From a virus, in the IMG/VR virus record IMGVR_UViG_3300009514_000005, positions 70,620 to 134,619 of that record: 64,000 nt of DNA; one strand, 5' to 3'. The notes beneath the pieces are model-generated. The model worked only from the letters and a program-made list of their open reading frames with translations. It ran no database searches and was not told the origin of the DNA. The position numbers were made by a program, and so were the translations under genes. Below, piece by piece: positions 1-59,309 of this stretch (positions within the stretch are counted from its first letter, which is position 1; every line of letters starts with the position of its first letter).

Positions 1-1470
1 AGCTAAATTTGTGAAAGGGTATGGATAATCGCCATTAGCGATCGTCAAAGGAAGGTCAGATCCACCTTGATTAAAAGTCAGTTTATTATTTGTATTATCA
101 ATTGTAATAATATTTTTTAGCTGGGGATATGCAGCATTTGGAGTTCCGAAGCTTTCGCCAAGTCTTAAGCCTCGAACAATGGTTACACCATCAATAGTCT
201 GTAAAACAGTAACCTTAGTTTTTCCAACAGCAGTTTGCTCAACAGTGGCCCCAACAAAATCAATCTCTTTAACATCTCCATCAATAAGAGATCCATTTTC
301 TTTTACTGCAAGAGGATCTCCGCCTGCACCTCCCCCAAGGTTAAGAAAGGGCCTCCTGTCAATTAAGGACGCGATATTGGTAAGCGTTGTTATATCGCCA
401 GAACCATTTGTTTCAAGGATTACAGTGAGTGCTTCCATGTTTGCAGCAGCAACACTAGGAAGATTATCGTCTTTTATAGCATCAGCTTTGGTGCCATAAA
501 TAGATCCATAATTCACAAACACATTATCAATTGGGCTAATCGAAATCGTGGCTAACTGAAAAGAGTTTGGAGTACCTGAAACTGAAGGAGTAGCAAAAGA
601 ATCATTACCAGAAACACCATGGGCCCCACCAATGGATCCAGAACTAAAACCTATAGTGGTGAGCTGATCATTGTTTACGCCACCGTTATAATCCCCAGAT
701 GCATCTCGAGGAAATTTAGATGAAATAGTTGATGCGATATAAGTATAAACCCTTTTGCCTGCTCGAACTTTTTGAGAAGGAGTAAGAGTAACCCCAAAAG
801 GATCGACTTGGCTTACAGCACCAAAAATTAGGTCATCCCATGGAAAAAAATCATCTAACTTTGTGAAAATGTCTGGAGGCATTAAGCCCCCTTGAAGAGC
901 ATTCGCAAAAGGTGTTAGCCTTGGATAACTTGTGTCATCAAATCCGAAATCACCCTGCACAAGCGGAGTACCAGCACTGGACGGTACGTCAACATGACCT
1001 ACAACTATTAAGCTCGGATCATTATCAATATGAACCCCGTCAACTAATTGCATAAAAGATGAAGTTTCTTGACCGATTACATAACTGACATCAAGAACAA
1101 TATAGACTCTTTGCCCCTCAAGGCCCGTAGCATCTAAATGAGTCTCAGAATTTGGACCGGGAGGAATTGTAACCGCAGTCTGAAACCCATTTGTACCTTG
1201 GTGAACAGCAATGGAATAACCAGAAGACTCATCAAAATTTCCAGAAACATATCCGGGACCAAGAGCAGCGTTTATTTGACCAGAAACAAAACCAGGACCA
1301 ACAATTATGTCACGATTAGAAAGACCACCTGGACTAATCTGAAATCCGGAATAAATACCCTTTCGAGTAATTCCAAAACCCTTTCGGTTTAGCCCGGTGG
1401 AAACATACGGCTCTTTCCATCGCATTTTTACATATTCATTATCGACCGCTGCCTGATTAAATATTGACAC
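1..1470 (-). CDS. Tail fibre / baseplate-attached structural protein (runs off the window edge, >=490 aa)
   Basis: Not in the ORF track. Hand translation from GTG at 1470 (SD-like GGGGTG upstream) is open to position 1: VSIFNQAAVDNEYVKMRWKEPYVSTGLNRKGFGITRKGIYSGF...; Gly/Ser/Thr/Val rich; directly follows baseplate genes. Confidence 0.75.
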   Translation of the reverse strand, partial: MSIFNQAAVDNEYVKMRWKEPYVSTGLNRKGFGITRKGIYSGFQISPGGLSNRDIIVGPGFVSGQINAALGPGYVSGNFDESSGYSIAVHQGTNGFQTAVTIPPGPNSETHLDATGLEGQRVYIVLDVSYVIGQETSSFMQLVDGVHIDNDPSLIVVGHVDVPSSAGTPLVQGDFGFDDTSYPRLTPFANALQGGLMPPDIFTKLDDFFPWDDLIFGAVSQVDPFGVTLTPSQKVRAGKRVYTYIASTISSKFPRDASGDYNGGVNNDQLTTIGFSSGSIGGAHGVSGNDSFATPSVSGTPNSFQLATISISPIDNVFVNYGSIYGTKADAIKDDNLPSVAAANMEALTVILETNGSGDITTLTNIASLIDRRPFLNLGGGAGGDPLAVKENGSLIDGDVKEIDFVGATVEQTAVGKTKVTVLQTIDGVTIVRGLRLGESFGTPNAAYPQLKNIITIDNTNNKLTFNQGGSDLPLTIANGDYPYPFTNLA

Positions 1471-1527
1471 GATTCACCCCTACGTCCTTGTTTAAGCTCC
1501 TCCTACCTTCCAATCTCAAAAGCGAAA

Positions 1528-2040
1528 TTAGAAGTTAACGGATACTAGGTGATTCAGAGTCTTTGAATCCAGCTTAGTCTCGCCAGGGAAAGTTCCATAA
1601 GCGACCATTACATCTTGAGGATCAAAAATTCCTAACTCAAAAAATATAGGAGCTTCCCCGCCAAGAGATGAACTATTTTTTGGACCGTCTGCACCGGCTC
1701 CAGTGTCAGGCTCATTAGCGATTACACCATTTGCTTCGGTGAGATCCAAGAAAGCCCTAAACTGAATCGTTGCCGGACCAATGAAAAGAACATCAGCGGT
1801 TTCGAAAGTTTTTCTGTAATAAAAAATTCCACTAGTTTCAGCCTGAACCTCCGTTAAGGCTGGGTCAGGAGTTACCGGCTCGAGGCCACCTGAGACTCCA
1901 GTATCCGCAAAGGCCCCAGTTCCAATATGGAAATATTGCCCCCATGAATGTAGATATCCAGTACCTGTTACGGCACCAAAAGATTTTGCTAATGCAGCTC
2001 TACCGCCGTTTGTTACTACGGCTTGAATGACGTTTGCCAT
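1528..2040 (-). CDS. Tail-collar/fibre attachment protein (similar to the P2 gpH N-terminal domain type)
   Basis: Starts with VVTNGGRAALAK, ends with FELGIFDPQDVMVAYGTFPGETK; lies downstream of the baseplate wedge genes. Confidence 0.6.
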   Translation of the reverse strand: MANVIQAVVTNGGRAALAKSFGAVTGTGYLHSWGQYFHIGTGAFADTGVSGGLEPVTPDPALTEVQAETSGIFYYRKTFETADVLFIGPATIQFRAFLDLTEANGVIANEPDTGAGADGPKNSSSLGGEAPIFFELGIFDPQDVMVAYGTFPGETKLDSKTLNHLVSVNF

Positions 2041-2134
2041 CGTTACTCCTCCCTGTGAGTTTGATCTTCCATGTTACCCTTAATTTACACTCGGATGACG
2101 TACAAAGTTTACCAGCGTTAATTTCACAAGTCTA

Positions 2135-4783
2135 CTATGTTGCTGTCCCTTCAGCAGTTCCTCCGCCATCCAATGCAATTGTGTCACTTATAGTTATATC
2201 AAAATTTGGTAGAGGATCTCCCAAAAGTCCACCACCTTCTTCACTTATAATACTAATGCTTGGTGCTCCACTAACACTCGTAGTCAAAACTTCGTTGATA
2301 TTGGAGACTGTGCCGATAGAAAGGCTGATCGGAATAATAACCGCTCCAGCATTCCCATCTTCAAATTCAACCAATATTGGAGCATCAGCCGACATGAGAG
2401 AAGTCTCTTGGGCTTCAGCATCCGAATTGGTTCCTATATTAATTCCTTCTAGTAAATCTCCTTCTCCATCAATATCAATATTAATTCCAATACTCGCATC
2501 AACAGAAAGCTCGGCGTCAACGGGCTCAATAGTAGCCAAGCCAGAAATTCCAGAATCAACTCCAGCCTGCTCTCCGACTACCAAAGTCAAATAAGGATCA
2601 ACATTAACCGGGATCTCCATCTGCCCTTCGATATCTACATCGAACTGAGCTGTGAGATTTAAGTTAGCGTCAAGCTCACCGTCAATTTTAACAATTGATG
2701 AGCTATTAGATGCGTTCGGAGTAGCCTCAAGATCTTCATCAAGCTCGTCAATAGAAGCGGTTTCGTTAACTGCAACCGGAATAATTACTGAAGCGATTGC
2801 ATCTATATCTATTTGAGCAGTCAAATTGAGGTCTGCGTCCAAGACTCCGTCAACCTTTTCTAAAGTAGACGTATTTAAAGCTGCAACTTCGATTTCATTG
2901 ATTTCATTTATCTTATCAATTGTTGAAGTCTTGCTGACTGAAACCGGAATAATTACCGAAGCTATTGTGTCTAGATCAATTTGAACAGTTAGATTGAGAT
3001 CAGCATCTAAAATTCCATCAACTTTCTCTAAAGTAGAAGCGTTTGAAGCTACAATTTGAATTCCTATAATTTCTTCAATTTCATCGACTGAAGATGTTTT
3101 TCCGATTGAAACCTGAATAGCAGCTTCACCCTCGCCATCAATCTCTATTGCGGCGGTCACATTAATATCGGCATCCATGATGGCATCTACCGGCTCAATC
3201 TCTGCTTCACTAAAGACATCAACCGGAATGTTTATCTCGTCACCGACAATAATCTGAGATGCCAGAGAAAGATCCTGATCGTAATTCTGATGTTCGTTTA
3301 TCTCTGTTGAAATATTTTGATCAGCGTCAATATCGGATTCGGTTTCTCCATTCATCTCGTCAAAAGAGAAAGATTTAAACACCGATACAGGAATAACCAC
3401 GGTTCCTTCAATGTCTTCTATTTCAAATAATGTCGTCACATCAAGGCTTGTATTCATCAAGCCTTCAACTTGTGACAGGAATGGATCAACCGTTACATTT
3501 AAAGATGCATCGAGAAAAGCATCAACTGATTCAACGGTAACCACTTCGCCTATAACCGGAGGAACCTCTGTTTGTTCTTCAATAGTCTGAACTTCAGAAC
3601 CAATAGTCAGCTCAGCAGTTTGATCAGCTTTTACGGTAAGTTCTTCAATTCCAAATGAAATTCCAGGAGGGCTATTATGAACCTCAATGATAATTTCTTC
3701 CGTATCTTCTTCGATGAAATCAATCGTAAAAGTCTCACCAACGATAGGGCTAAGCACTATTCCGCCTAAAGGAACAATTCCAGCGCTTAAGCTAAGGCCA
3801 GCACCCATGGCGAGTTCTTCATCATATTCACAATCAATTTCTGCCCCGCAAACGACCACGAATTCATTAACGGAATAACCAACCGAAGCTCCGAATCCAG
3901 AGAAGACAACAATGCCATCTTTTTCATCAAGCGGCGTAACATCGGCCTCAACAATATCGAATCGATTAAATTCATTGAAATTGTATTCCTCTATTTCTTC
4001 ATTAATAATAATGGTTACATTCTCGCCAACATCGACTGGAATTTCGACAAGAAGCTGAGGTGGTCTCAATTCATGATGAATGCCAACAACATCAAAAATT
4101 TTATCGACAATAAGATCAAACAAAACATTAAAATCAATCCCAGACTCTCTTGGTTCAATAACTTGAAACTGAACTCTAATATAAGATGATTTAGCAAACT
4201 CATTAGTTTCAGACAGAGGAAGCCCAGGGAAAGATCCTGGCGGCACATCCACATGAAATATAGGAACGGCTCTTGTGTCGGCTCTTTTTGGTTTTAAATA
4301 AAAATGATTTCTAAATGGAATGAATGGCCTAAATTGTAAATCGGCTCTCCAAAAATTAGTTACAAATACATTAAATCCAGATGCAAGACCTCTTACGGAA
4401 TAACCCTTAACGGTTGATTTAATTTGAAGCCACTGAGATGCGTTTCCAACCAATAATCTCTGAAGAGATTCAGGCTCATTCTTATCAACATTTAACCCGA
4501 ATGTTCTTCCCAAAAGGATTAATAAATCTTGCCGAGCCCTATCAGAATCAATGATAGTTTCCATGTCATCAATTTCAACGCGGCGATTGTTAATTAAATG
4601 AGAGTAGGTTTTTAAAACCTTAAGGAGGGGATCTTTATCGTTATCTTTGGTTGTCTCGCCAGGATCTAGCGAAAGGCTTTCATCAAAGTATTCCTCTGGA
4701 AACAGCTCAATAAGCAGATCTCTACCGACATCCGATTTGCCAAAAGGGCCTTTTCCAAAAGTAGATCGACCAAATCCCGCCAA
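2135..4783 (-). CDS. Baseplate wedge protein (P2 gpI / T4 gp7-like N-terminus) with long acidic repeat tail
   Basis: N-terminal LLILLGRTFGLNVD...QRLLVGNASQWLQIKSTVKGY resembles gpI-type wedge proteins; position after the J-like gene; C-terminal half is made of ~56-aa repeats. Confidence 0.65.
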   Translation of the reverse strand: MAGFGRSTFGKGPFGKSDVGRDLLIELFPEEYFDESLSLDPGETTKDNDKDPLLKVLKTYSHLINNRRVEIDDMETIIDSDRARQDLLILLGRTFGLNVDKNEPESLQRLLVGNASQWLQIKSTVKGYSVRGLASGFNVFVTNFWRADLQFRPFIPFRNHFYLKPKRADTRAVPIFHVDVPPGSFPGLPLSETNEFAKSSYIRVQFQVIEPRESGIDFNVLFDLIVDKIFDVVGIHHELRPPQLLVEIPVDVGENVTIIINEEIEEYNFNEFNRFDIVEADVTPLDEKDGIVVFSGFGASVGYSVNEFVVVCGAEIDCEYDEELAMGAGLSLSAGIVPLGGIVLSPIVGETFTIDFIEEDTEEIIIEVHNSPPGISFGIEELTVKADQTAELTIGSEVQTIEEQTEVPPVIGEVVTVESVDAFLDASLNVTVDPFLSQVEGLMNTSLDVTTLFEIEDIEGTVVIPVSVFKSFSFDEMNGETESDIDADQNISTEINEHQNYDQDLSLASQIIVGDEINIPVDVFSEAEIEPVDAIMDADINVTAAIEIDGEGEAAIQVSIGKTSSVDEIEEIIGIQIVASNASTLEKVDGILDADLNLTVQIDLDTIASVIIPVSVSKTSTIDKINEINEIEVAALNTSTLEKVDGVLDADLNLTAQIDIDAIASVIIPVAVNETASIDELDEDLEATPNASNSSSIVKIDGELDANLNLTAQFDVDIEGQMEIPVNVDPYLTLVVGEQAGVDSGISGLATIEPVDAELSVDASIGINIDIDGEGDLLEGINIGTNSDAEAQETSLMSADAPILVEFEDGNAGAVIIPISLSIGTVSNINEVLTTSVSGAPSISIISEEGGGLLGDPLPNFDITISDTIALDGGGTAEGTAT
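2300..3560 (-). repeat. Intragenic ~168-nt (56-aa) degenerate tandem repeats
   Basis: STLEKVDGxLDADLNLTxQID starts at 3037 and 2869 (168 nt apart), with more diverged copies on both sides; boundaries approximate. Confidence 0.8.
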
Positions 4784-5261: not shown

Positions 5262-7232
5262 CTATGAAGTCTCAGCTAAAACCCCTGTAACCACTAAAAA
5301 TCTTTCTTTTATTACTATAGTTACAATCTTATGTTGAATTATTTCCTGATCAGTAATAATAAGATTTCCGTCCTCGTCCAACCTATCAAGAGGCGATGTT
5401 ATTTCCGCATTCACATATCTAATATCTCCAGCGGAATTGGCATCTCTAACAGCGTTACATAGATCGTAAAGATATAAACTATTTCCAGCGGATCTTCTGA
5501 CAAGAAGCCCAAATGGATCAACAGTTCCTGTTAGAGCATTATTTGTTCTGGAAAGCACATCTTCTTCTTTGGCTGTTGAATTTATTCCAATCTCTATTCT
5601 GATATTTGGCTCAACCAAATTAGGAGTTCCGTCCACGGTATTAACGGTAACTACAGCATCAGCTATCTTTTGCAACGTGTCCTCAGCATCTTGAAGAGTT
5701 TGGCTAGTTGGAGAAATATATTTATTATTTTGATCAACCGATAGAATCACAACCTGAACATTATTTGCTTTACTTGTATCAGACATTGTTTGGGATAAGT
5801 AATCATGGAGCCCAGAAACACTTGTATCGATTAAAAGATTTCCGGCGTCAGCATTTTCCTTAATAGCCACATTATCTTCGCAATCAACAAAATCGGTTCC
5901 GCTCACGCCAAGAGAAGGAATCCCTGATACAATTAGTCCACCTTGTCCAATCACTTGGAGCCCTGGGATACCGGAAACCCCAAGAAACCCTATCCCGGTT
6001 ACATTTCCGCCATTGCATCCCAAAAACTGAGTCCCGCTAACACCTAGGTTGCTTTGACCGTCTACAGCCAGTCCACCCTGTCCCCCAACGTTTAGGCTTC
6101 CGGTACCGGAAACGCCAAGGAAATTGACTCCGCTTACTCCTGTGGCCAAAATTCCACTAACAGCATTATCTACAAGCTCCTGACCTCCACTGATACTATT
6201 AAAGAAAGCCTGAATTGTGAGATCATCATCAATACCTCTCATGATTTGAGCGTCTGCTAAGGTTACACCATTTTGAAGTTCAGCTATTGTGTCATAATCT
6301 TCTTTAACCACTGCGGCATTTTGTGTTCTAAAAAAGGCAGAAGCAAATGTTTTCACCCTTCTAATATCTTCTGGATCTGACCCGACAACGGACGCCTCGT
6401 TCGTGACTGTCATCCCTATGGTTTGACCATTCACAACGAGCTGATCTACTGGTCCCGAGATTTGATTAGACCCAATGGCCCCCTGCAATCCTCTTCCGTA
6501 CCTATAACTCAAGACAATGTTTGAATTTTCAGGAGGAATATTTCCGGTGATTCCATCACCAAATCTAAGCTTTGGTGGATCATCAACAAAAATAACTTCA
6601 TAAATATCTAAAAATTCGAAAGTAAGAATATCCTCCCTGGACCAAAGGTTTCCATCAACCGTGACGGATAAATCATCAGAGTATATAAATCTTTCTTCAG
6701 GAATTCCGATAATACTAAATTGTTGATTTTTGCTTTGATCAGAAACCCACGAAAGCTGTCTACTTTCTCCTTCTTTAAGAGTAACGCTTAGGGTCGTTTC
6801 TCCAACATTAAGCTTAGCTGGAACATCTCCGCGATACTCATAAATGATGTCTCCAGATCCTTGGAATTGAAATCCAACGGGAATCTCAATCGGAAATACA
6901 TACGGAGCGTCATCAAAAGTTAAAACAGCAGAAAGAGAAGCTGGCCTGGCTGGCTCAATTGGCTTACCAAGCATTCTCGCAAGCTTTACGATGCTTTTAT
7001 TTAGCCTGGCAGTATCTAAAAAATATTCACTAGCCCTTCTGTTAACCAAAAAAGCAAGAGCTTGCATTCCAAAAGCAAGCTGATCCATCATGGCATTACC
7101 AAGCTCTGTGTTTAAAAGATTATTGAAATCATCAGGATAGTTGGTTTGAAAAAAATCATTAGCCTCACTGCGAAATGTGGCAAAATCTTCAGCTATAAAT
7201 TTGACTCTATTGAGTTCGTCTACGAGTGCCAT
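5262..7232 (-). CDS. Baseplate wedge subunit (P2 gpJ / T4 gp6-like) with an internal Gly-rich repeat insertion
   Basis: Motifs AEDFATFRSEANDFFQTNYPDDFN, KLRFGDGITGNIPPENSNIVLSYRYGRGLQG, QNAAVVKEDY; follows the gp25-like gene. Confidence 0.85.
   Translation of the reverse strand: MALVDELNRVKFIAEDFATFRSEANDFFQTNYPDDFNNLLNTELGNAMMDQLAFGMQALAFLVNRRASEYFLDTARLNKSIVKLARMLGKPIEPARPASLSAVLTFDDAPYVFPIEIPVGFQFQGSGDIIYEYRGDVPAKLNVGETTLSVTLKEGESRQLSWVSDQSKNQQFSIIGIPEERFIYSDDLSVTVDGNLWSREDILTFEFLDIYEVIFVDDPPKLRFGDGITGNIPPENSNIVLSYRYGRGLQGAIGSNQISGPVDQLVVNGQTIGMTVTNEASVVGSDPEDIRRVKTFASAFFRTQNAAVVKEDYDTIAELQNGVTLADAQIMRGIDDDLTIQAFFNSISGGQELVDNAVSGILATGVSGVNFLGVSGTGSLNVGGQGGLAVDGQSNLGVSGTQFLGCNGGNVTGIGFLGVSGIPGLQVIGQGGLIVSGIPSLGVSGTDFVDCEDNVAIKENADAGNLLIDTSVSGLHDYLSQTMSDTSKANNVQVVILSVDQNNKYISPTSQTLQDAEDTLQKIADAVVTVNTVDGTPNLVEPNIRIEIGINSTAKEEDVLSRTNNALTGTVDPFGLLVRRSAGNSLYLYDLCNAVRDANSAGDIRYVNAEITSPLDRLDEDGNLIITDQEIIQHKIVTIVIKERFLVVTGVLAETS
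5811..6161 (-). repeat. LGVSG-type short repeats inside the baseplate J protein
   Basis: Eight VSG tripeptides in ~117 aa, many at ~8-aa spacing (GVSGVNFLGVSGTGSLNVGGQGGLAVDGQSNLGVSG...). Confidence 0.8.
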
Positions 7233-7616: not shown

Positions 7617-9095
7617 TTAATCCTTCCGCTGAACAACGCGACCGTTGTTTTCTACCGCATATCCCTCAGGTATTTCCTGATCAAATTCTAGAACATTATT
7701 AACCAAGATTTTAGTGATTGTTCTGGTCAAGATAACATCATTTGTATCATCAATAATTTTTGCAATTTTATTCTCTGAAAATTCACTTACGTCTTGCATC
7801 GTCAATCTGTTGTCTCCAGAAGAAAAGTCTGCCATTCTGGCTACAAAAAATATTTCATCATAACGATCATCCTTGGCCTCAAGTTGACTTATTTTTTGAT
7901 TAAATACATCAACCGTTAAGCCACCCTGCTCATAGCCGATTCGATCTCCTCCAGACTTATTTAGCCTCTGGTCGATGATGCCAAAGAGATCAAAAAAGCT
8001 CCCAGAGCCAGAGAATGTTCCATCTCCAGCCTGATTAACAGCCCCAAGACGAGCAAGCACTTGAGACAATCTAACCACTCTCTGAGTGCCCCTAGCCGTG
8101 ATAACATCGTCTACAGGAATCAAACCATCATCGCCATACCTGCCAACACCGGATCCGGTTGCTGGAGAATTTTGCCAATTTAAAATATTTTGCCTCTCTG
8201 TGTTAACAGAATCTTTTGCATTACTTATTTCAGATGCTTCGATTCCAATCGAATCATTGGCATTGAGAGGAGCAAGCTGCTTAACCAGTTGATCATCAAA
8301 ATAAACAACATCACTATTTAGAAGTCTTTTAAAAATTTTCATCACCCCAGGAGAAGAGGATCCATTAAGCGTTTCTCTTTCTCCATTGATAAATCCCGGA
8401 TGAAATTCTTGAATCGTAGCTCCAGCCACAGGGTCACCACCTTCGGTATCGATAACGGTTATGACAACATCTTCAGCCGCCTGAGGAGGTGGCGGTGGAA
8501 TTGGGGGAGCCGGAGGTATAATTGTAACGCTCTGAATAATTCCATAAACAGCGTTTCCAGCTCCGTCAAAAATTACAACTCTTTTTCCCGCACTGAATCC
8601 ACCAGTGGATACGGAAGCCGTATTCCCAGAAAAAGCGCTAAAAAGAGTATCGCTCACACCGCTATCGGTAAATCCAGATTTCAACAAGGTAAGGCCAGCC
8701 TTCAACCTAGTATCAGCAGTCACTTCATGATCAGAAACAGATCCAGCAGGATTCCCGTTATTTGACGAGATAAGCTTTGGAGGGAGATTTACCCAAGGAG
8801 GACTAATCGGAAAATGAGGGCCTCCAGCTTGATTAATTGCTGAATCGATTAAATCTGCCTCATCATAAAGAGTCTTGGTCGTGCCGTTGATGGCTTTCAT
8901 CTCTCCAAAATATTGATTAATAATATTGAGACGATTATCAAAAAAGACTTTATCTTCTCCATCTTTTTCAAGAAGCCGATCTCTTTGGGCCTGGAAATCA
9001 TCAAGACTCTCTTCAACATTTTGTATCTCAGTTGGAAGCTGAAGAACCTGAAGGCTAATGGATTCGATTTGTGCATCAGTAAATATAAGAGACAT
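7617..9095 (-). CDS. Hypothetical virion protein, 492 aa, with a poly-Pro linker
   Basis: Long ORF coupled to the spike gene stop; contains PPAPPIPPPPP. Confidence 0.6.
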   Translation of the reverse strand: MSLIFTDAQIESISLQVLQLPTEIQNVEESLDDFQAQRDRLLEKDGEDKVFFDNRLNIINQYFGEMKAINGTTKTLYDEADLIDSAINQAGGPHFPISPPWVNLPPKLISSNNGNPAGSVSDHEVTADTRLKAGLTLLKSGFTDSGVSDTLFSAFSGNTASVSTGGFSAGKRVVIFDGAGNAVYGIIQSVTIIPPAPPIPPPPPQAAEDVVITVIDTEGGDPVAGATIQEFHPGFINGERETLNGSSSPGVMKIFKRLLNSDVVYFDDQLVKQLAPLNANDSIGIEASEISNAKDSVNTERQNILNWQNSPATGSGVGRYGDDGLIPVDDVITARGTQRVVRLSQVLARLGAVNQAGDGTFSGSGSFFDLFGIIDQRLNKSGGDRIGYEQGGLTVDVFNQKISQLEAKDDRYDEIFFVARMADFSSGDNRLTMQDVSEFSENKIAKIIDDTNDVILTRTITKILVNNVLEFDQEIPEGYAVENNGRVVQRKD

Positions 9096-10006
9096 TATCC
9101 AGATACCACCTTGGGACTTCCCGTTGCAATATAAGCAACAATTGGTACTCCCAAATTCCCTTGGCCCACAGCGAAATCACCAACCCTGGCTACCGGCAAA
9201 CCGCCGCCGCCAAGCTGAACCAATGATCCTTGAACCTTTGTTATACCGGAAGCTGCCCCTAATTCAGTTTCAGAAGTTCCGAAAAACTTTGCTTTCGCAG
9301 AAGCCTTAAATTCAATTTCCCCAGTAGCCTCGGCATTAATATTAACAGCTTTTACAGAGGCGTCTTTTGCCGTAGTGACAGTTATATTATCCGTAGTAGT
9401 AATATCGGCGGTTCCCTCAACGTTTACTGAAGCGTTCCCTTTAACTTGTATAGCCATTCCCTCTGGAGTAAAGGAAACTGAATGTTCTCCCTCTTCCTGC
9501 TGGCTTTTAATGGTAAGTTTTTTCTCGCCAGACTCCATAACGATAGATGATTCTTTTCCGTTTTTATCTTTTGAAATTATCTTAATGGCCTCTTTGCCTT
9601 CGTTTTCATCTATTAAAATTTTCGTGCCATTCTTAAAAACCCATCCCCTTACGTTCGGATAGCCATTCTTGAAATCCTCTGGAAGTTCTCCTCTGGCGTA
9701 ATAGCCTCCAAAATACATTGGGTGATTTATGTCTCCATTCTCAAAAACAACCGTTATATGATCACCAACATCAGGAGGAAAGAACTGACCCTTTTCCGGA
9801 CCGGCCAAATCAAATCCAATCGGTTCGGCAGCCTTTGAAAGGATTCTTTCTCTCATTAGAGTAGGGACTTTTATCGTCACGGTTCCTCTTTTTAATTGGT
9901 CTTCATTATTAGAAACAACAATCCCGGTATAATGGCCGTAATATCGTTGGAAATATTCCAATCCAAATTTTTTTAAAATATCTACAAAATCTTCAAAAAG
10001 GCCCAT
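9095..10006 (-). CDS. Baseplate central spike (gpV/gp5/VgrG-type OB-fold plus beta-helix) with a C-terminal PAAR-like motif
   Basis: YYGHYTGIVVSNNEDQLKRGTVTIKVP, FFPPDVGDHITVVFENGDINHPMYFGG; C-terminal LPVARVGD...IATGSPKVVSG. Confidence 0.88.
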   Translation of the reverse strand: MGLFEDFVDILKKFGLEYFQRYYGHYTGIVVSNNEDQLKRGTVTIKVPTLMRERILSKAAEPIGFDLAGPEKGQFFPPDVGDHITVVFENGDINHPMYFGGYYARGELPEDFKNGYPNVRGWVFKNGTKILIDENEGKEAIKIISKDKNGKESSIVMESGEKKLTIKSQQEEGEHSVSFTPEGMAIQVKGNASVNVEGTADITTTDNITVTTAKDASVKAVNINAEATGEIEFKASAKAKFFGTSETELGAASGITKVQGSLVQLGGGGLPVARVGDFAVGQGNLGVPIVAYIATGSPKVVSG

Positions 10007-20855: not shown

Positions 20856-21045
20856 TCAACAATCTCCCATCTTTATAACGACTAGAAAATTCACGCATCA
20901 ACTTTACTAATGTTTCACGAACATATAAATTATTGCTTTTAACCGTACCTATAAAATCCCTAGCAACATCTTCTTCTAGGAAAAATTTAAAAGGTCTCTT
21001 TTTAACATCCATGTTTTCTTCTACAAAAAAATCAATCTTGTCCAT
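20836..21045 (-). CDS. Possible ribbon-helix-helix protein
   Basis: KRPFKFFLEEDVARDFIGTVKSNNLYVRETLVKLMREF; AAGGAG 6 nt before ATG 21045. Confidence 0.5.
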   Translation of the reverse strand: MDKIDFFVEENMDVKKRPFKFFLEEDVARDFIGTVKSNNLYVRETLVKLMREFSSRYKDGRLLNEPERT

Positions 21046-21766: not shown

Positions 21767-21768
21767 AA

Positions 21769-23191: not shown

Positions 23192-23223
23192 CGTCAACTC
23201 CGTTCAACAATTCAACCTTATTA

Positions 23224-43243: not shown

Positions 43244-46200
43244 TTAACCAGTCACAAACGGCATTGAGAAGTTCTTCTTCCAATTTACATAAGGACCGCC
43301 CTCTATAGAAGACTGATTTTGCATTTCTTTTTCCAAACGCTTTCTCTCTGCCTTTTCTTCCCACCCAGCAATATCTCTATTCTCATGACCAGTTCTAACA
43401 GCAACCATATTATGCTCACATACCCAGCTTTGATCATCATCATCAAATGCAAGATATTGTTGAGCGTTCTGCTGCGTGTCTTCAGTCATATAAGTTCTAG
43501 TGTCCCTACTTAAAGTATAGATCGCTCCACATAAAGCATCACTCGAATCCTTTGAATTCCCTTCCGGATGGTCGATTTTTCCAGTTTTGGCATCTTTTTC
43601 TAGCCCTTTAAGCTCAGTTAATAAAGGTTCATATCTATATTGTCGGATACGGTTCTCATAAAAGGCATTCTTTAGCGTTACATACGGAGCGTTAAGAGGA
43701 ATATTTTTTCCCTGGGTAACCCGATCCATACTAACCAGCTCTACTTGATAGCCACGCTGTTTTAAAGTTTGCAGCATTCCTACGGACTGATATTGATCAC
43801 AGGTGACTTTTTTTATGAAAAATCCATTAGCGTGAATTCGATAAATAAGCTGCCTTATTTCAGATTGAACTATCTCGCCATTAGTCGGGGCCTCGATTTT
43901 TAAATGAAAATCGACAATGTAAATAGGGAGTAGCTCATCGGCCTGACCCAGGCGAGAAACCCTTTTGTAGCCCCCAACATGAGCCATACAGATTCCGGTC
44001 AAGTCATTGTTTTTTGAAAGGTCCATATGGATATGACGTGGTGCCTGAGGATTTAACAAAGGAGCATTCTCTCCATACACATTGGTTTTGATTAATTTAT
44101 TCCAATGAATAACAATTGGAGCATCTTGAACCCAAATCAAATCTTTAAAAGGATGAGTCCGATTATCAAACGATTCATAAATTTTATCTCTACGAGCAAA
44201 GAAAGGAGAAATTGCTGCGGTGGCGTACCCGGAAATATCCCTTATGCTATTATGAACAAAAACACCTGGCCCCACTAAAAAATTATTATATTTTTCTACC
44301 GAGATATCATAAACATCTTCTCTGCCAGATATTTTTATTTCTTTTACTTTATGATTATTTGGATCATTAGAATCATTATCACACCAATAACAACCATCTT
44401 TTTTAATACTTCTTTTATTGTGCCACCTTAAATGCCCACCCCAAGAAGCAATATTATTCATAAACCCAGGATTATCTGAACACCATTTTTTCTTGGCTTT
44501 ACCTATTTTATTTTTAGCATCTTGTTTTTTTGCTGGATTGTTTTCGATATTATTTTTTTTAGAAAACTCTATGAAATTATCTATATTTTTTTTTCTTGCA
44601 ATTTTTTGTTTTTCCGTAGGGTTATCACTTCCCCATCCATATTTTTTACCTATCTTAGAAGCAATTTTCTTATGATGATCTGACTTATTATATTTAATCA
44701 TTTGATCGGAAGACCTTTTTTTAAATTTCTTAACCCATTTTTCTTCTCCACGTTTTATCAAATCACTTCTTTTTTTAGCTGATTTTTTCCTAGACTCATC
44801 AGAATGTAAAAACTTTATTGATCTAGACCTGTGAATAATCACATGATCTTTATTTGACATGATTTCTAAATTATCTGGACTGTTATCTTTTTTATCTTCA
44901 TTTATATGATGAACAACATAACCATTATCAATACATCCTTTACTTAACTTTGTTTCAACGGCCACCGCTCGATGAGTCCATAGCTTCATTCCATATTTAT
45001 TACATTTATATGTCTCATAACCGCCTTTGTTTTCGGTCCTATAAAGCGGCATCAAAGAATCACCAACAGTTAACTCATCTGCTCTTTTGTATTCACCTGA
45101 TCGCAATAAAAATTCATGATTATCCGTACATTTAACCACCGCATCATTGTCTAATACAATTTCATAAATCAAAGCATTTTTCTTTGTTAACCTAGCATCA
45201 TAGCCAAGCCCAGGCTTCAGTGTTCCATCGAGACCACATGAATAAACCCAAAACTCTTTTTTCCCAACCAAATCTTTAATCGGAACACATTGACCATTCA
45301 AAAGAGGTATTTCTGTATCACCAGTCAAGCATCCATCCAAATCGTCCTCAAAAGCTTTTTTAAATTCAACCGGAACATCAATAACCCTCATCTCTTCAGG
45401 ATCAGATTCTCCATCTGCCAAGACCCTAGACAGCTTAGAGTCATTACCGATAGCGACCTTAAACGTATGACCGCTATATCTACCCTGAGGCTGAACCTCG
45501 TAAACGGCTCTTTCCCTTACGAAAACATTTGGATCATCAATGGATTGCTTGATTCTTTTTTCCGTAAATGAATTAACGGTTTTCTTTGAGGATATGCAAA
45601 GCAAAAGCCCAGGTAATTTTCCGGACACCATGAATCTGGACTCCATCCTTCTTTTAATGGATGTGTAAATAGCTTCCGCGTAATCCTTAGCAGTATCGTC
45701 TTGGCCCTTTTTCTTTTTAAAAAAGTTGGACTCATCAATGATTGCCCCGAAGCAGTTGGCTCCAAGAGTGGATCTCTCAGTCGAAACACCAGGAGCAATC
45801 CATATACCGTTAGGCAAAAGAATCTCGTACTCCAAACTTTTTAAAGGTTTAAATTCTTTTTGAAAATAAGGGGTATCCTTGATGATACTTAAAAGTTTAT
45901 CCCCAACAATATCCCTGGCTAAATCCTTGGTGACAGATATTCCCAGGAAAGCAATTTTATCATTGGGCTGGATCCCATAAGCCTCATGAGGGTTACGCAA
46001 ACAACTCACCTCGTAAATCATTCGAGCCATAGCAATGACCCCAAAGGTTGTTTTACCAGCACCAATGGATCCACCAATAAAAGCTTCGGAATATTTATTG
46101 TTAAACAATTCAAACAAATCTTCTTTTAACGGTTCAAAAAGACTTCTTCCGAATTTACCTAGGAAATAATTATCAGTAAGGAATGTGTGCATATCGACAG

Positions 46201-46393
46201 GAGGAGTTCGATAAATGCTTTGACTTGCTACATCAAGAAAGGGACTTCGGCCGTTAGACTTAAGGTCTTCAACGATCCTATCAAGCATCCATCGCTCATC
46301 ATTACTGAGAGCGGAAAGATCCTCGTACAAGAGTTTGTCGACTTCGTCAGAGGTGCGAACACTCTGAAATCTTCCTCCTTGATCGTAAAGAAT
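43244..46393 (-). CDS. terL: Terminase large subunit, intein-containing; probable ATT start
   Basis: Walker A GGSIGAGKTT, Walker B AIIDESNF, nuclease HIHMDLSKNND.TG, VTCDQYQS, KDSSDALCG. Frame is open up to ATT 46393, which has TAAGGAG 5 nt upstream. Confidence 0.93.
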   Translation of the reverse strand: MLYDQGGRFQSVRTSDEVDKLLYEDLSALSNDERWMLDRIVEDLKSNGRSPFLDVASQSIYRTPPVDMHTFLTDNYFLGKFGRSLFEPLKEDLFELFNNKYSEAFIGGSIGAGKTTFGVIAMARMIYEVSCLRNPHEAYGIQPNDKIAFLGISVTKDLARDIVGDKLLSIIKDTPYFQKEFKPLKSLEYEILLPNGIWIAPGVSTERSTLGANCFGAIIDESNFFKKKKGQDDTAKDYAEAIYTSIKRRMESRFMVSGKLPGLLLCISSKKTVNSFTEKRIKQSIDDPNVFVRERAVYEVQPQGRYSGHTFKVAIGNDSKLSRVLADGESDPEEMRVIDVPVEFKKAFEDDLDGCLTGDTEIPLLNGQCVPIKDLVGKKEFWVYSCGLDGTLKPGLGYDARLTKKNALIYEIVLDNDAVVKCTDNHEFLLRSGEYKRADELTVGDSLMPLYRTENKGGYETYKCNKYGMKLWTHRAVAVETKLSKGCIDNGYVVHHINEDKKDNSPDNLEIMSNKDHVIIHRSRSIKFLHSDESRKKSAKKRSDLIKRGEEKWVKKFKKRSSDQMIKYNKSDHHKKIASKIGKKYGWGSDNPTEKQKIARKKNIDNFIEFSKKNNIENNPAKKQDAKNKIGKAKKKWCSDNPGFMNNIASWGGHLRWHNKRSIKKDGCYWCDNDSNDPNNHKVKEIKISGREDVYDISVEKYNNFLVGPGVFVHNSIRDISGYATAAISPFFARRDKIYESFDNRTHPFKDLIWVQDAPIVIHWNKLIKTNVYGENAPLLNPQAPRHIHMDLSKNNDLTGICMAHVGGYKRVSRLGQADELLPIYIVDFHLKIEAPTNGEIVQSEIRQLIYRIHANGFFIKKVTCDQYQSVGMLQTLKQRGYQVELVSMDRVTQGKNIPLNAPYVTLKNAFYENRIRQYRYEPLLTELKGLEKDAKTGKIDHPEGNSKDSSDALCGAIYTLSRDTRTYMTEDTQQNAQQYLAFDDDDQSWVCEHNMVAVRTGHENRDIAGWEEKAERKRLEKEMQNQSSIEGGPYVNWKKNFSMPFVTG
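44249..45331 (-). mobile_element. Intein (361 aa) with HNH homing endonuclease and NUMOD3-like repeats
   Basis: N-junction DLDG/CLTGDTEI; block B VVKCTDNHEFL; C-junction VYDISVEKYNNFLVGPGVFVHN/S; HNH VVHHINEDKKDNSPDNLEIM..H; visibly more AT-rich than the exteins. Confidence 0.95.
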
Positions 46394-46402: not shown

Positions 46403-47530
46403 TTAAGATGCTGGGTAACCCCCACCGGCCCTGGCTTTTAGTTCTGCAATTCTTTTATCCGGTCGGCCCATATTTCCAATGATTGTATAAAGATGAATGG
46501 CTGAACCACCGGCTTCATAAATTCCCCTATGAAGCTTTGTTTCCGGCCCTTTGTGCATAAGGTCGTTCAGAGATCTAAATGATTCCTCAAGAACTTCGGT
46601 TGATATGCTACCAAGTCCTTCCGCGTTGGAAACAACAATACCGGCCCCGGTTTTTGCTTTAGAGATATCACACCCCTCAACCAAGAGACCTTTCTTCACA
46701 TTGTTACGAATTGAATTAGCTACGGCATTTGAATCCGAAACATCATCTATCTTGGTTCTTCCGAACACCATGATTCCTGCCTCGAGTACAGATTTATAAT
46801 CTTCTGGATCAAAAACCTGATGAGCTGTCTCGTCATCGATTGCAGCCAACTGATTAAATGAATCAAAAAGAGCCGCTGTATTTTTATTAGCCTTTCCGTA
46901 AGCATCAATAATGCTAGCTCCACCATACATTTTTGTTACCCTAGCGTTATCGACAATGACTAATGGAGAAAGAAGATCAGCTTCGGCCATGGCTAGTAAT
47001 TCCTCAAAAGCCTCTAAAGCATTATGCTGTACGGCTGAAGACTCATCATAGCTAGGAAGGGTAACCATTACCCCAACCCTTTTCTCTGGATTAGACACGA
47101 GATTAAGCCTCATGTATTCCTTGCATTCTTTCACCAGTGTTTCGATGGATCCAGATCCAGTTCCACCACCAGCGCCAATACAAATAATAATTTGCTCTAC
47201 ACCTTTTTTGAAAACCTTTTGAATTAATCCTCGAATATTATCAGCTTCCTTTTCAGCGCATACTTTGCCAACAGAAGGATTTTTTCCGGCACCACCTGGA
47301 GAGTCCATGATTAAACGATTCTCTTCGGGAACCTGTAGTCTTTTCATATCTTTTTCAGTGGTATTAATGATGGCCACTCGCTTGTAACCAAGATTATAAA
47401 AAGCATTGGCCAAATTTCCGCCACCACCACCTGACCCAAGGAAAGCCATCTTAACGGCAGTTTTTCTCTCCTCTTCAACTTCCTCAACTTCTATTTCCAT
47501 TGACTCTTCATCGATATCTATATCAATCAT
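46403..47530 (-). CDS. FtsZ/tubulin-family GTPase (phage PhuZ/TubZ-like)
   Basis: FLGSGGGGGNLA, AIINT, GGAGKNPSVG, tubulin signature GAGGGTGSG, VTLP, IVDN, T7-like FDPEDY; GGAGG before ATG 47530. Confidence 0.92.
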   Translation of the reverse strand: MIDIDIDEESMEIEVEEVEEERKTAVKMAFLGSGGGGGNLANAFYNLGYKRVAIINTTEKDMKRLQVPEENRLIMDSPGGAGKNPSVGKVCAEKEADNIRGLIQKVFKKGVEQIIICIGAGGGTGSGSIETLVKECKEYMRLNLVSNPEKRVGVMVTLPSYDESSAVQHNALEAFEELLAMAEADLLSPLVIVDNARVTKMYGGASIIDAYGKANKNTAALFDSFNQLAAIDDETAHQVFDPEDYKSVLEAGIMVFGRTKIDDVSDSNAVANSIRNNVKKGLLVEGCDISKAKTGAGIVVSNAEGLGSISTEVLEESFRSLNDLMHKGPETKLHRGIYEAGGSAIHLYTIIGNMGRPDKRIAELKARAGGGYPAS

Positions 47531-47637
47531 GGTTCCTCCATTTTTCCTGCCGGAATCACGCAACTCTTTGAATTCCCGTTGGCTCAAGATGTTATACGAA
47601 TACTTTAACACAATCACTTGCCTTTAGGCAGACCGCT

Positions 47638-52262: not shown

Positions 52263-52695
52263 TCATACCATAATCCCTAACACTTCTTTTCACTAGCCAG
52301 TCAGGAAGAATATCGATTACCTCAGTGCAAAGAAACTCTTTAGAACTTCCCCATTTATTTGTAGGAGGAAACGGAACCTTGAAAAACTTCTTCAGTATTC
52401 CCCTCCAAATAAAATAAGCAAAGGCCCCAAAATCATATGAGTTTTGATCAAAGTGATCTATCAGAGAAGTCCAAACCTCTTCTTCTTTCTCGAGAGGTAA
52501 ATCATAATCAAGATCGAAAAGAATATCGCTTTTCTTTTTAAAAGTATTTAACCAAGCAAGCTCCACACCAAAAAGACTACTGTGGATTACGAACTTATCA
52601 TCAAACACAAAAGCTGTATGACTTACAGGCTCACCAAGTCCCCATGAAATAAATCTAGATATTGGATGTTTACTGATTGTGAATACTATTTTCAT
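52210..52695 (-). CDS. Permuted papain-like (NlpC/P60, YiiX-type) amidase/peptidase
   Basis: N-terminal SHTAF (His), YDFG, C-terminal FLCTEVI (Cys), then TSPYQL. Confidence 0.7.
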   Translation of the reverse strand: MKIVFTISKHPISRFISWGLGEPVSHTAFVFDDKFVIHSSLFGVELAWLNTFKKKSDILFDLDYDLPLEKEEEVWTSLIDHFDQNSYDFGAFAYFIWRGILKKFFKVPFPPTNKWGSSKEFLCTEVIDILPDWLVKRSVRDYGMTSPYQLYLELVKMRKSA

Positions 52696-54482
52696 GACGT
52701 TTTGTTGTTACTGGATGCCGTATCAGTTCCATTGTCAACAAAGTTAGTTCCAGTATTCCCCTTAAAATTGTTTCCGGTAACAATAGTATCATTCGCACTG
52801 GAAATAATTTCAAGACCATTCCCTCCGTTTCCATAAATTCTATTGGAATTAATTATATTATCATCAGCGGCACAATTTATACCGTCTCCAGAATTATCAT
52901 GAATAATATTATTAGAGCTTACGCAATCATCATCTCCACTGCTTAAAGAAATGCCGTCTCCACCATTATCACTTATATTATTTCCAGAGATCACTCCGTT
53001 GATGCCAGCCTGAATTCCATGGCTTCCGTTGCCTGTTATCAAACAATCATTAATCGCATTCTTGGTTCCATCAAAATCTAATCCAACTCCAGCATTGTCT
53101 GAAATAGTACAAGAATCAATGATCGCTTTCCCTGTTCCAGCCTCATCGTCAAGGCCCTTGTCTTCATTCAAGGAAAGAATACAATCGGTTACATTCACTT
53201 GCTCGGCACCATCTTCAAGAGAAATACCATGCTGGCCATTTGCTATGGCAGCACAACTATCAATAAAAACAGATTTTCCACCTTGAACCCTATACCCTTT
53301 GTGCAAATTATTTTTAGACATGCAAGATTCAAATGAAATTAAATAAGAATTCAAAATTCTAAAACCAGAACTATTATTATTTTCCGTTAGGCAAGCCACC
53401 AGGTGACATTCACCACAATCCTCAAGACCAAACCCATCATCACCTGGAGCTGTGTTTCCACAATCATCCACTAAGCAATGCCTTAAAAGACCATGCATTA
53501 CACCTCTCAACCAAATCCCAAAAGCTCCAGATCCAGTAACAATAATATTTTGTATCAATATTCCTGTATACATGGCTTGGGCAACATAGGCTTCCCCGGA
53601 TAGAGCTGATCCCATATATGGGTTTTTTAAGATCAAAGTTGTATCGTTTGTAATGCTTTGGATCTCATGGAAAGAACACCCAAGAAGAATAAAATCTCCT
53701 GGTGATAAATTTGTAAAGGTGGTCCCAGATCCGGTTACCGTAGACGAATTATGGCTAACGCTTATCGTTCCTGCTGTTTCCTTGGTTCCTCCGCTCGCGT
53801 CTGATTTAACAGACTGAGAGCCTGAAAAAGCAATAATTACCCCTCCAGCAGACTCTCCTATCAAGTGTCCGTCATCTGGAATATTAACTCCAGAAACCTC
53901 TGCATAAGTTCCATTCCTAACAAACACAGATTTGTTTCCATCATTAAACGCTTCCGCTACAGAAAGGTAATCACCGCATCCAGAAACAGTTGAAACAATA
54001 GCGTCATATTTTCTAGGAACTTTAACCGTAGCCTTTGCCCCTGTCTCGTCAGAAACTATTACACGGCCTTCAAAATTAAGAATAGATTTTTCCGTTCCTA
54101 TGGTTTGATCATCTTCTTGAACTTCAATATCTGATGTTGATCCAGTCTTAATCCATTTTGAATCATCAAAAATAAAACTTACGGATTTTCCAGAATCAAG
54201 AATCACCTCATTCATCAAAGAAGTATTCGCAGTTTGAATCTTGGCTGAAAAAGGAGAACTAGATTCTACAGTTATTATAAGATTCTGACCCTTCTTGCTG
54301 TTTCCAGACACAGGAAGAGTAATGTTCCTATCGGCACCAGAGATAGTAAACCGAATATAGGAACCAATGGTTTCATCAAGGGTGATGTTTCCGGAAACAG
54401 ATGTAACCCCAGCATCCCAGACGGTCTGGCGATTAACCTGCAAATCTCTCTGAATTAACTGATCACCCTGTACTTCGCTCAT
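52692..54482 (-). CDS. Right-handed beta-helix virion protein (tailspike/fibre-like)
   Basis: YLSVAEAF..G.KSVFVRNGTY, then many ISxNxIxxNxGxGI-type repeats. Confidence 0.8.
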   Translation of the reverse strand: MSEVQGDQLIQRDLQVNRQTVWDAGVTSVSGNITLDETIGSYIRFTISGADRNITLPVSGNSKKGQNLIITVESSSPFSAKIQTANTSLMNEVILDSGKSVSFIFDDSKWIKTGSTSDIEVQEDDQTIGTEKSILNFEGRVIVSDETGAKATVKVPRKYDAIVSTVSGCGDYLSVAEAFNDGNKSVFVRNGTYAEVSGVNIPDDGHLIGESAGGVIIAFSGSQSVKSDASGGTKETAGTISVSHNSSTVTGSGTTFTNLSPGDFILLGCSFHEIQSITNDTTLILKNPYMGSALSGEAYVAQAMYTGILIQNIIVTGSGAFGIWLRGVMHGLLRHCLVDDCGNTAPGDDGFGLEDCGECHLVACLTENNNSSGFRILNSYLISFESCMSKNNLHKGYRVQGGKSVFIDSCAAIANGQHGISLEDGAEQVNVTDCILSLNEDKGLDDEAGTGKAIIDSCTISDNAGVGLDFDGTKNAINDCLITGNGSHGIQAGINGVISGNNISDNGGDGISLSSGDDDCVSSNNIIHDNSGDGINCAADDNIINSNRIYGNGGNGLEIISSANDTIVTGNNFKGNTGTNFVDNGTDTASSNNKTS

Positions 54483-54792: not shown

Positions 54793-54804
54793 AAATTACC
54801 CCGG

Positions 54805-55443: not shown

Positions 55444-55460
55444 GATTCTCTCCTCCGTGA

Positions 55461-56462: not shown

Positions 56463-56471
56463 GAGGAAACT

Positions 56472-56828: not shown

Positions 56829-56836
56829 GAGACTCC

Positions 56837-57697: not shown

Positions 57698-58233
57698 TGA
57701 CTAAGCGAATAATAACCGCTCAAGACATTATAGACATTTCTCCCCACGAACCCCTTTGTACTGACCCCCTGAAATTCTGCCCTGATGGCGTAGGAACTTT
57801 ATTAGATATTCTGGAGCCAAATGATCTCTTGGCCTATGATCGCCTCTGGGTGGCACTCAGAGAACGCTTCATGCCCCCAGGACTACTAAGATCCTTTGGA
57901 ATAGAAACCACCAAGAAAATCCTTCAGGCCGAAAAAAATAACCTGATTGGATTCCAGACTTGTTGCTTTGCCCAAAAAATCTTATCCAACAAATTTACCA
58001 AAGAAGAAGTAAAAAAGTATATCGACTCCAATCGATTGGAGCTTAGAAAAACAGATGGACGTAAAGCGTCAATATGGTGCCTTAATATTGACCAAGAATA
58101 TTTTGGAAAAGATCATCACGGAATCACTGGATGTGCAGCAATGGCTTCCGTTTTCTATGCCAGAGAGGCTAAGCTAGATATAGAGATGATATTGGAAGAC
58201 CTAAAGGAGGCCATTAAAATTTGGCAACTATAA
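57697..58233 (+). CDS. Hypothetical protein
   Basis: TAATG-coupled start at 57697; ITAQDII..PLC.DP..GTLLDIL..DRLWVALR. Confidence 0.55.
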   Translation: MTKRIITAQDIIDISPHEPLCTDPLKFCPDGVGTLLDILEPNDLLAYDRLWVALRERFMPPGLLRSFGIETTKKILQAEKNNLIGFQTCCFAQKILSNKFTKEEVKKYIDSNRLELRKTDGRKASIWCLNIDQEYFGKDHHGITGCAAMASVFYAREAKLDIEMILEDLKEAIKIWQL

Positions 58234-59309
58234 AAACCGTAGGACCAGGAAAGGATTTCGAAACACTCTCTGATTGGGAACTATTTGCTCGTACACAAAA
58301 CAACGGACAAATTGCTGAATGCTATAGCGGAGCAAATCTAGGCCAGTTTAATCCAGCCAGTTGGTCTTTCCCTGGAGCCTGGTATGATCCACACATTATT
58401 AGAGTAGCCCACGGCCATAAGCATAAAGGGAAAATACCAACCAATATTAATAATGTTGCCCACATAAAAGTAAGCGGTACAGCGATAGCGATGAAAACAT
58501 CAAATCAAAATTTCTTTGTCATTGATGGACTCTACATTGAACATGAATACGGACAAGCCTTTGTGAAAGGCTTATCTGGATTATGGAATCATTTCCAAAA
58601 TAATTTCACAAATCATCTGACAGGTACGGGAAGCGTTTCATCCATACAATACCGAACCAACATTAATGGATTCGCTGGGTTCATAAGAAATAACATCATC
58701 CTTATATCAGGAGGATCTACAGCTAGAGTTATTTGGGGCAGAGCGCTGAATGGAAAATCAGTAGATATGGCCATTCAAAACAATTGCCTTTACTGTTCAC
58801 CATCGGCATCTGCAACATGGGGAATCATTTTAAGAAGAGACGGGGGAGGAGGGAAAGGCGACGGAGGAGTCCCTGCTGATCTTGATGTCACGGCCCATAA
58901 TAATATTGCTTTTAATTGTCACGTTGGAAGCGGAATGGATATATCTTATGCAGGGGGAGGAGCATTGTTTGCCGACTCTAACGCCACCTCTGATCTAAGT
59001 ATAGCCAGCACAGTAAATCCATTAACCAACCAGGATTCAAACGATTGGCTTGTTGATCCTGGAGTAAATTTTAATCAACTTAAAACATCACCAGGGATTG
59101 ATTCAGGTAGAAATCTTTCAACTGCCTTGTGGGGCCCTTTTAATTTTGATGCCCTTGGGGCTTCTCGACCAAAAGGAAAAGCTTGGGATCGCGGACCAAT
59201 AGAACGATTTAAAGATGATAAGTTTCCAGCCATTGCTTCCCCAGGAAGGTCAAGGGAAAGAAGAAGACAAATACCTACTTATCTTAAAAATTTATCCTAT
59301 CTTGAATAG
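58221..59309 (+). CDS. Beta-helix protein with a choice-of-anchor-Q-like C-terminus
   Basis: TIKTVGPGKDFETLSDWE; Asn-ladder repeats (FIRNNII, IQNNCLY, AHNNIAF); DALGASRPKGKAWDRGPIE. Confidence 0.7.
   Translation: MATIKTVGPGKDFETLSDWELFARTQNNGQIAECYSGANLGQFNPASWSFPGAWYDPHIIRVAHGHKHKGKIPTNINNVAHIKVSGTAIAMKTSNQNFFVIDGLYIEHEYGQAFVKGLSGLWNHFQNNFTNHLTGTGSVSSIQYRTNINGFAGFIRNNIILISGGSTARVIWGRALNGKSVDMAIQNNCLYCSPSASATWGIILRRDGGGGKGDGGVPADLDVTAHNNIAFNCHVGSGMDISYAGGGALFADSNATSDLSIASTVNPLTNQDSNDWLVDPGVNFNQLKTSPGIDSGRNLSTALWGPFNFDALGASRPKGKAWDRGPIERFKDDKFPAIASPGRSRERRRQIPTYLKNLSYLE

Follow-up and report, generated by a model that had tools for sequence, protein, structure and literature searches.

Three described systems bear a partial resemblance to the subject of this study, the tripeptide Val-Ser-Gly (VSG) in virion proteins encoded by a 64,000-nucleotide stretch of phage DNA (positions 70,620 to 134,619 of the IMG/VR record IMGVR_UViG_3300009514_000005; hereafter, the window). 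The window covers the final 64 kb of the 134.6-kb record (G000), which is approximately 90% complete. The C-terminal beta-helix of T4 gp5 is built on the repeat VxGxxxxx (PMC4576200). Some mycobacteriophage virions (Che8 and Rita) are glycosylated, with the glycans shown chemically, as summarized in the part of PMC11256854 that cites Freeman et al. 2023. The GT9-like glycosyltransferases (GTs) Aah and TibC attach heptose to serines of beta-helical repeats and recognize structure rather than sequence (PMC3835316).

The baseplate wedge protein of the window contains an insert that resembles T4 gp5 in having, within a phage baseplate protein, an 8-residue period with Val at position i and Gly at position i+2, and in that the middle residue is free in two homologs (P0047 and P0048). 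It differs in that gp5 is the central spike, whereas the repeat here sits in an insertion of a gp6-fold wedge protein, and in that the middle residue in the main clade is Ser in 68% of the rungs, with Gly before Val. T4 gp5 is a trimeric interdigitated helix; the insert, modeled with AlphaFold2 (AF2) as a monomer, gave units of a strand and a one-turn helix with a predicted local distance difference test (pLDDT) score of 50–78. As for Che8 and Rita, the phage encodes GTs, its outer virion proteins are the proposed acceptors, and a glycan shield would be the product; unlike in those phages, the motif here is a tripeptide within the protein chain, a replication module holds the GT genes, and glycosylation would be a proposal from sequence. 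The acceptor sites of the mycobacteriophages are reported to lie in the C-terminal tails of capsid and tail-tube proteins. In the Aah/TibC autotransporter system, cytoplasmic GT9-type enzymes act on many serines in short loops of a repetitive beta-helical passenger domain; the phage likewise combines a GT9 domain with a repeat module rich in exposed serines. Its GT9, however, is fused to a GT2, generic GT9 proteins were matched better, and no pairing of acceptor and enzyme genes was seen.

VSG excess in the peripheral virion proteins

The VSG excess is real: it is a protein-level, tripeptide-specific, and clade-wide property that is under selection and confined to the peripheral virion modules. 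VSG occurs 34 times in the 19,622 residues of the window open reading frames (ORFs), against expectations of 7.4 (composition) and 12.7 (first-order model). In the tripeptide enrichment test against composition that the initial annotation of this DNA had proposed, VSG ranked first among all window tripeptides, both by count and by z. The late half of the genome holds 37 VSG (9.1 expected), and the early half is at the chance level (6 vs. 5.0 expected). For the tail block, which extends from the fiber to the terminator, 26 VSG were found vs. 4.7 expected, corresponding to a 5.6-fold excess (shuffle standard deviation of 2.1), and none of 2000 within-protein shuffles reached 26. The initial annotation had counted 29 VSG in outer virion proteins and approximately three in TerL, the portal, and the large internal proteins, close to the present total of 34; its per-protein counts agreed with the per-ORF counts, and the scarcity noted for TerL and the portal corresponds to one and zero VSG, respectively.

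The comparison covered eight relatives, read as genomes or large fragments, of which two are complete with terminal repeats (G001, 160 kb; G044, 149 kb). The tail-block excess was 3.9- to 5.9-fold in each of the eight, and fiber proteins without detectable homology between genomes were each enriched in VSG. Orthologs of the late proteins kept 56% of the VSG serines vs. 31% of other serines, and the corresponding values for valine were 65% and 36%. None of five VSG in early proteins was kept in the orthologs.

An artifact of composition, internal repeats, shared domain ancestry, or a DNA word is very improbable as the source of the excess, although a single repeat module accounts for eight of the 34 sites and several others are closely paired in tandem. 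Composition was ruled out by the per-protein shuffles. Internal repeats were ruled out in two ways: VSG remained first when the wedge protein was left out (29 vs. 8.7), and merging the sites that are at most 20 residues apart gave 17 clusters vs. 4.7. A DNA-level word was ruled out because VSG is encoded by 29 different 9-mers using both TCN and AGY serine codons; the signal and the selection on it are therefore at the protein level. The residue preceding Val is mostly small (G, S, A, or T), and the remaining flanks are unrelated between sites. Other orders of V, S, and G were near expectation, except for GVS, which overlaps G-VSG. The second most enriched tripeptide of the late proteins was DAS (21 vs. 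7.5), which is probably noise because the relatives do not share its excess, whereas that of VSG is common to all eight.

All three positions of the motif are specific. Among the V-x-G tripeptides of the tail block, the excess was found for x = S, and T, D, N, G, A, and I were near expectation; x-S-G was enriched for V only, and V-S-x for G only. In the eight relatives pooled, VSG occurred 205 times vs. 44.9 expected (4.6-fold), and 11 analogous tripeptides (VTG, ISG, LSG, VNG, VDG, VGG, VAG, VSN, VSD, VSS, and VSA) were at 0.85- to 1.95-fold. Two external controls were used. In 69,000 residues of a Bacteroidetes metagenome-assembled genome (MAG), the enrichment was 1.59-fold for VSG, 1.84-fold for VTG, and 1.86-fold for VDG, and in 78 distant myovirus tail loci, it was 1.7- to 1.8-fold for VSG. 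A generic turn preference therefore covers less than a third of the VSG excess, and the suggestion that VSG is just a favored beta-turn, made in the initial annotation as its alternative, is insufficient by itself, as none of these comparisons exceeded 1.95-fold. In the same myovirus loci (L004–L081, mostly marine T4-like), SGS (524 vs. 149) and TSG (268 vs. 119) were strongly over-represented, and a conserved sheath site with the sequence SLPA-VSG-TF was observed.

Structural setting of the motif

Almost all the genes of the window are on the minus strand. According to family and fold searches, the phage has a contractile tail and T4-like parts; those of the head are a gp23-like capsid protein, a T4-type portal, and an intein-bearing large terminase, and the other tail parts identified are a P2 gpI-like protein, tape measure, hub, fibers, sheath, and tube. 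The following features carry VSG.

5262–7232, minus strand: gp6/J-like baseplate wedge protein, 8 VSG (PHROG 219; Foldseek matches to the T4 gp6, P1, and KP1 wedge proteins, E 1e-15 to 1e-17)
5793–6215, minus strand: octapeptide-repeat insert of the wedge protein (residues 340–480), xxxLGVSG, holding all 8 of its VSG
1–1470, minus strand: N-terminal 490 residues of a 2319-residue tail fiber (gene G000:65130–72089), 4 VSG here and 7 in the whole protein (weak PHROG tail-fiber match)
1528–2040, minus strand: conserved tail protein of 170 residues, 1 VSG (kept in five of eight genomes)
2135–4783, minus strand: P2 gpI-like baseplate/fiber-attachment protein of 882 residues, 1 VSG
9095–10006, minus strand: baseplate assembly protein, VSG at its end
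16277–16807, minus strand: tail tube protein, 1 VSG
16827–18626, minus strand: tail sheath, 3 VSG at residues 248–274, in the insertion domain
17727–18044, minus strand: sheath insertion domain (residues 195–300), paralog of the insertion domain of the major capsid protein (MCP)
18653–19348, minus strand: T4 gp15-like tail terminator, 4 VSG (AF2 pLDDT 79.9; Foldseek gp15, E 1e-6)
32720–34228, minus strand: T4 gp23-like MCP, 1 VSG in the insertion domain (residues about 150–260)
52692–54482, minus strand: right-handed beta-helix tail fiber/depolymerase-like protein, 4 VSG in the N-terminal 200 residues
54805–55443, minus strand: 212-residue protein, 1 VSG
58221–59309, plus strand: 362-residue protein, 1 VSG

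Further single VSG are present in the ORF at 29510, the adaptor at 31433, a 1216-residue protein, and TerL.

Approximately 55 homologs of the wedge protein with 50–59% identity were found in public metagenomes. Each of the main-clade homologs (more than 50) carries 6–14 VSG on an 8-residue lattice with the consensus xxxLGVSG; spacings of 8, 16, and 24 dominate, V and G are almost invariant, and the middle residue is S in 378 cases, T in 58, G in 49, D in 13, and N in 1. The AF2 model of the wedge protein (pLDDT of 78.7 overall, with the lower range given above for the insert) shows the insert as a series of three-residue strands (G-V-S) and one-turn helices in alternation, with a long helix on either side. 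P0047 and P0048 retain an L-x-V-x-G lattice in which x is A, S, I, Q, E, G, or T, and the fold therefore has no need of serine. In P0057 and P0058 (33–40% identity), the lattice is absent, and five to eight VSG lie between helical segments; VSG is also found between helical segments in a fiber of G042.

The AF2 model of the terminator has one VSG as a four-residue hairpin turn, another at the beginning of the next strand, and the third in the flexible C-terminal tail. Two of the sites, at residues 105 and 115, are conserved throughout the family. In 20 of 23 homologs, the second site (NGVSG) is retained; Ser of the first site is at times replaced by Pro or Ala, and the third site alternates between Ser and Thr. 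The sheath has three VSG per genome in five genomes, all of them in the insertion domain and distributed over six alignment columns in which Gly is mostly fixed. The insertion domains of the sheath and the MCP (17727–18044 and 33449–33781, both on the minus strand) are paralogous, with 39% identity over 79 residues (E 6e-12), and would therefore represent one decoration domain displayed on head and tail surfaces alike. The VSG positions are not the same in the two copies. A sequence search of solved structures gave no match for this domain of approximately 80 residues.

Tentatively, we favor a structural explanation, in which VSG, usually as [G/S/A]-V-S-G, would be a lineage-wide strand-end or turn motif of the peripheral virion modules, kept by selection. 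For a motif whose enrichment, specificity, location, conservation, and independence from the rhamnose (rml) cassette described below are matters of observation, we infer a structural role for each residue. Valine would anchor a very short beta-strand or a hydrophobic staple, and serine and glycine would supply an exposed strand end or a tight turn, or else an N-cap for the helical turn that follows. The octapeptide repeat inserted in the gp6-like wedge protein, a V-x-G rung repeat, would have multiplied the motif, and short tandem duplications in the fibers and the terminator would have multiplied it further. No covalent modification would be required, and the sugar genes would serve another purpose.

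This structural role is favored because the largest share of the VSG lies on a strict 8-residue lattice with nearly invariant V and G, and because AF2 places VSG at short strands and one-turn helices, at a hairpin turn, and at a strand start. The VSG residues of the late proteins are, moreover, more conserved than other V, S, and G; P0057, P0058, and the G042 fiber use VSG between helical segments; and Ser is replaced by Pro, Ala, or Thr at some of the conserved sites. The sugar genes point in the same direction, as the excess is alike with and without the rml cassette, the fibers of G039 are free of VSG despite a GT2-GT9 gene, and the transferase genes sit among replication genes approximately 30 kb away.

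Four findings weigh against a purely structural motif. Serine is dispensable for the fold, as seen in the P0047/P0048 lattice. The logic of a turn or an N-cap predicts T, D, and N as well, but the lattice is nearly without D and N, and VTG, VDG, and VNG are barely enriched. A cellular proteome treats VSG like VTG and VDG, at approximately 1.6- to 1.9-fold. Finally, the sheath insertions keep three VSG at shifting positions, and non-homologous fibers are independently enriched, which looks like selection for the motif itself and not for one structure. If the serine is unmodified, a single tripeptide can reach a 4- to 6-fold excess across the non-homologous virion proteins of a whole clade, and a V-x-G rung scaffold folds without serine; this would caution against calling tripeptide excesses sequons without chemistry.

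Sugar genes and their relation to VSG

An rmlDCA cassette had been placed inside the structural block by the initial annotation, and it was confirmed at 21032–23197, in the part of the late operon that separates the terminator from the head genes; an orphan gene adjoins it.

21032–21772, minus strand: rmlA, glucose-1-phosphate thymidylyltransferase (PF00483, E 6e-36)
21769–22359, minus strand: rmlC, dTDP-4-dehydrorhamnose 3,5-epimerase (PF00908, E 5e-48)
22298–23197, minus strand: rmlD, dTDP-4-dehydrorhamnose reductase (PF04321, E 3e-69)
23224–24288, minus strand: 354-residue orphan adjoining rmlD, with no recognizable fold or family

The orphan was considered as a hidden glycosyltransferase, which the family and fold searches did not support. 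Outside the window, an RmlB-like short-chain dehydrogenase/reductase of 331 residues is encoded next to the fiber genes (G000:59626–60621; Epimerase, 2e-41; GDP_Man_Dehyd, 9e-36), a family-level match that does not separate dehydratase from epimerase. Also outside the window, among helicase and primase genes, a GT2-GT9 fusion (PF00535, 5e-13; PF01075, 4e-18) and an adjoining GT (PHROG 7162, 4e-32) are encoded at G000:38634–41596 (L103:634–3596, minus strand). The pair is conserved in G001, G038, and G044, and is found too in the phage records G039 and G040; in G040, GT2 and GT9 are separate genes with the third GT between them. The GT9 domain matched 3tov (3e-6), WaaF (1.5e-3), and TibC (0.02). 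On the opposite strand, again outside the window, G000:49265–50905 (L103:11265–12905, plus strand) encodes a sulfotransferase and an APS kinase that has a C-terminal extension, and neither was found in the relatives read. Searches of the genome for a thymidylate-synthase-like gene and for a TET/JBP gene, the latter a weak search whose control matched nowhere, found none; this weakens, without excluding, a role of the GTs in DNA glycosylation.

The complete sister genome G044 is without rmlA, rmlC, rmlD, and the adjacent orphan; the flanking genes are kept, and two small unrelated ORFs occupy the place of the cassette (L151, 8090–11274). By gene content, rmlACD and the orphan are a dispensable accessory module, and the absence of the orphan from G044 may be mere divergence. 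The tail-block excess was 4.07-fold in G044 and 3.93-fold in its rml-carrying sister G043, and maintenance of the motif therefore does not depend on the phage rml cassette. In individual proteins, the terminator of G044 has no VSG vs. three in that of G043, including the loss of the near-universal NGVSG site; G044 is also without VSG in the sheath (lost in G043 as well) and in the homolog of p24545, and two universally kept wedge sites are VTG. Of 13 ancestral VSG sites, nine were retained in G043 and five in G044, a suggestive but not significant difference. G039, an unrelated smaller phage with a GT2-GT9 homolog (37% identity), has no VSG in its two fiber proteins.

The initial annotation had interpreted the serine of VSG as O-glycosylated with rhamnose and had proposed looking for co-occurrence of VSG with rml and glycosyltransferase genes. 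No co-variation of the motif with the sugar genes was found in G044 vs. G043 or in the G039 fibers, in a comparison that had no clade genome without the three GTs. The link to rhamnose was thus not supported; the part of the interpretation that stood, and was extended, is that the excess is not explained by composition, a DNA word, or a plain turn, that Ser is preferred, and that further sugar genes are present.

Although we do not favor it, glycosylation with a broader choice of sugars is a possible explanation to be taken seriously. The VSG serine would be the acceptor of phage-directed cytoplasmic O-glycosylation on the tail, neck, fiber, and capsid-decoration modules, with the GT2-GT9 fusion, the neighboring GT, or an unrecognized enzyme as the catalyst and a glycan coat as the result; dTDP-rhamnose made by the phage or its host, or a different sugar, may be the donor. 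The specificity of all three positions argues for such an acceptor, with Ser far above Thr, Thr above the rest, and Asp and Asn almost absent, as does the restriction of the motif to exposed peripheral or inserted virion modules, with the chance level in non-virion proteins. Homologs without the serine preference (P0047/P0048) show that other residues are compatible with the fold, and positions turn over while their number is kept, as for the sequons of glycan shields. The gene content is also consistent with it, comprising three GT domains, RmlA, RmlC, and RmlD in the late operon, and the RmlB-like gene beside the fiber genes, with no gene of the thymidylate-synthase-like or TET/JBP type found that would indicate DNA glycosylation. 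Precedents are the mycobacteriophage virions and the heptose of Aah/TibC on beta-helical repeat serines.

The comparison of G044 and G043 bears on glycosylation from both sides. The loss of all VSG from the terminator, sheath, and p24545 homolog of the rml-less G044 agrees with it, whereas the tail block as a whole shows no co-variation, the difference in ancestral-site retention is not significant, and the sheath VSG were lost in the rml-carrying G043 too. The GT2-GT9-bearing G039 with its VSG-free fibers, the tolerance of Pro or Ala at some sites, and the location of the three GTs in the replication module, where they resemble an oligosaccharide or lipopolysaccharide (LPS)-type set, also argue against glycosylation, and the GT9 domain is no nearer to TibC than to LPS heptosyltransferases. 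Nor is any three-residue V-S-G sequon known.

If the serine is modified, virion glycosylation would have a short, defined sequon in phages other than mycobacteriophages, and the 231-residue terminator with its three sites, the 80-residue sheath/capsid decoration domain, and the wedge repeat array would form a ready test set; this would also point to glycan coats as a common feature of environmental phages. The stronger proposal, of a new cytoplasmic O-glycosylation system that is encoded by the phage, has a small residue followed by V-S-G as its sequon, and coats the baseplate, fibers, sheath, neck, and capsid decoration domains, is less likely than not. If the proposal is true, bacteriophage virions would gain their first defined three-residue O-sequon, in a large uncultured clade provisionally linked to Bacteroidota, and the wedge octapeptide module would be a dedicated glycan-display array.

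Another surface function of the serine appears improbable. It could be a hydroxyl ladder binding host polysaccharide or water, the site of another modification (phosphorylation, acylation, or sulfation), or a mark for an assembly factor. The serine preference beyond what the fold requires, the 8-residue spacing, which would align serines on one face, the occurrence of the motif on receptor-facing baseplate and fiber proteins, and the APS kinase and sulfotransferase of G000 are consistent with such functions. The sulfation genes, however, occur in G000 but in none of the relatives sharing the excess, the isolated VSG of the terminator, sheath, and capsid cannot make ladders, and no candidate kinase or acyltransferase was found. 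Compared with these alternatives, the structural strand-end or turn motif remains our preferred explanation.

Relatives, host, and other genes of the window

No close cultured phage was found by megablast against cultured phages, and the top capsid identity was 37%. A 61-kb contig of the clade (G042 contig 13, JADKBL010000013.1; L136–L140), which encodes one of the wedge protein homologs, was binned in an activated-sludge Bacteroidetes MAG. Its G+C content is 44%, and that of the MAG contigs sampled is 40%. The binning hints weakly at Bacteroidota as the host of the phage clade.

In G044 (L151, 3610–4150 and 16290–17921), the sheath, terminator, and portal are 51–57% identical to those of the window, unlike the tube protein, which is 28% identical, and a capsid homolog was not found by BLASTP at 1e-8. 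From these sequence comparisons, the differences in tube and capsid suggest module replacement.

The large terminase (43244–46330, minus strand) is split by an intein with an HNH endonuclease (PF14890, 1e-18; PF13392, 3e-9). Directly upstream of the terminase, a TubZ/PhuZ-like tubulin gene is located at 46403–47617 (minus strand), and its copy in G044 is 58% identical.

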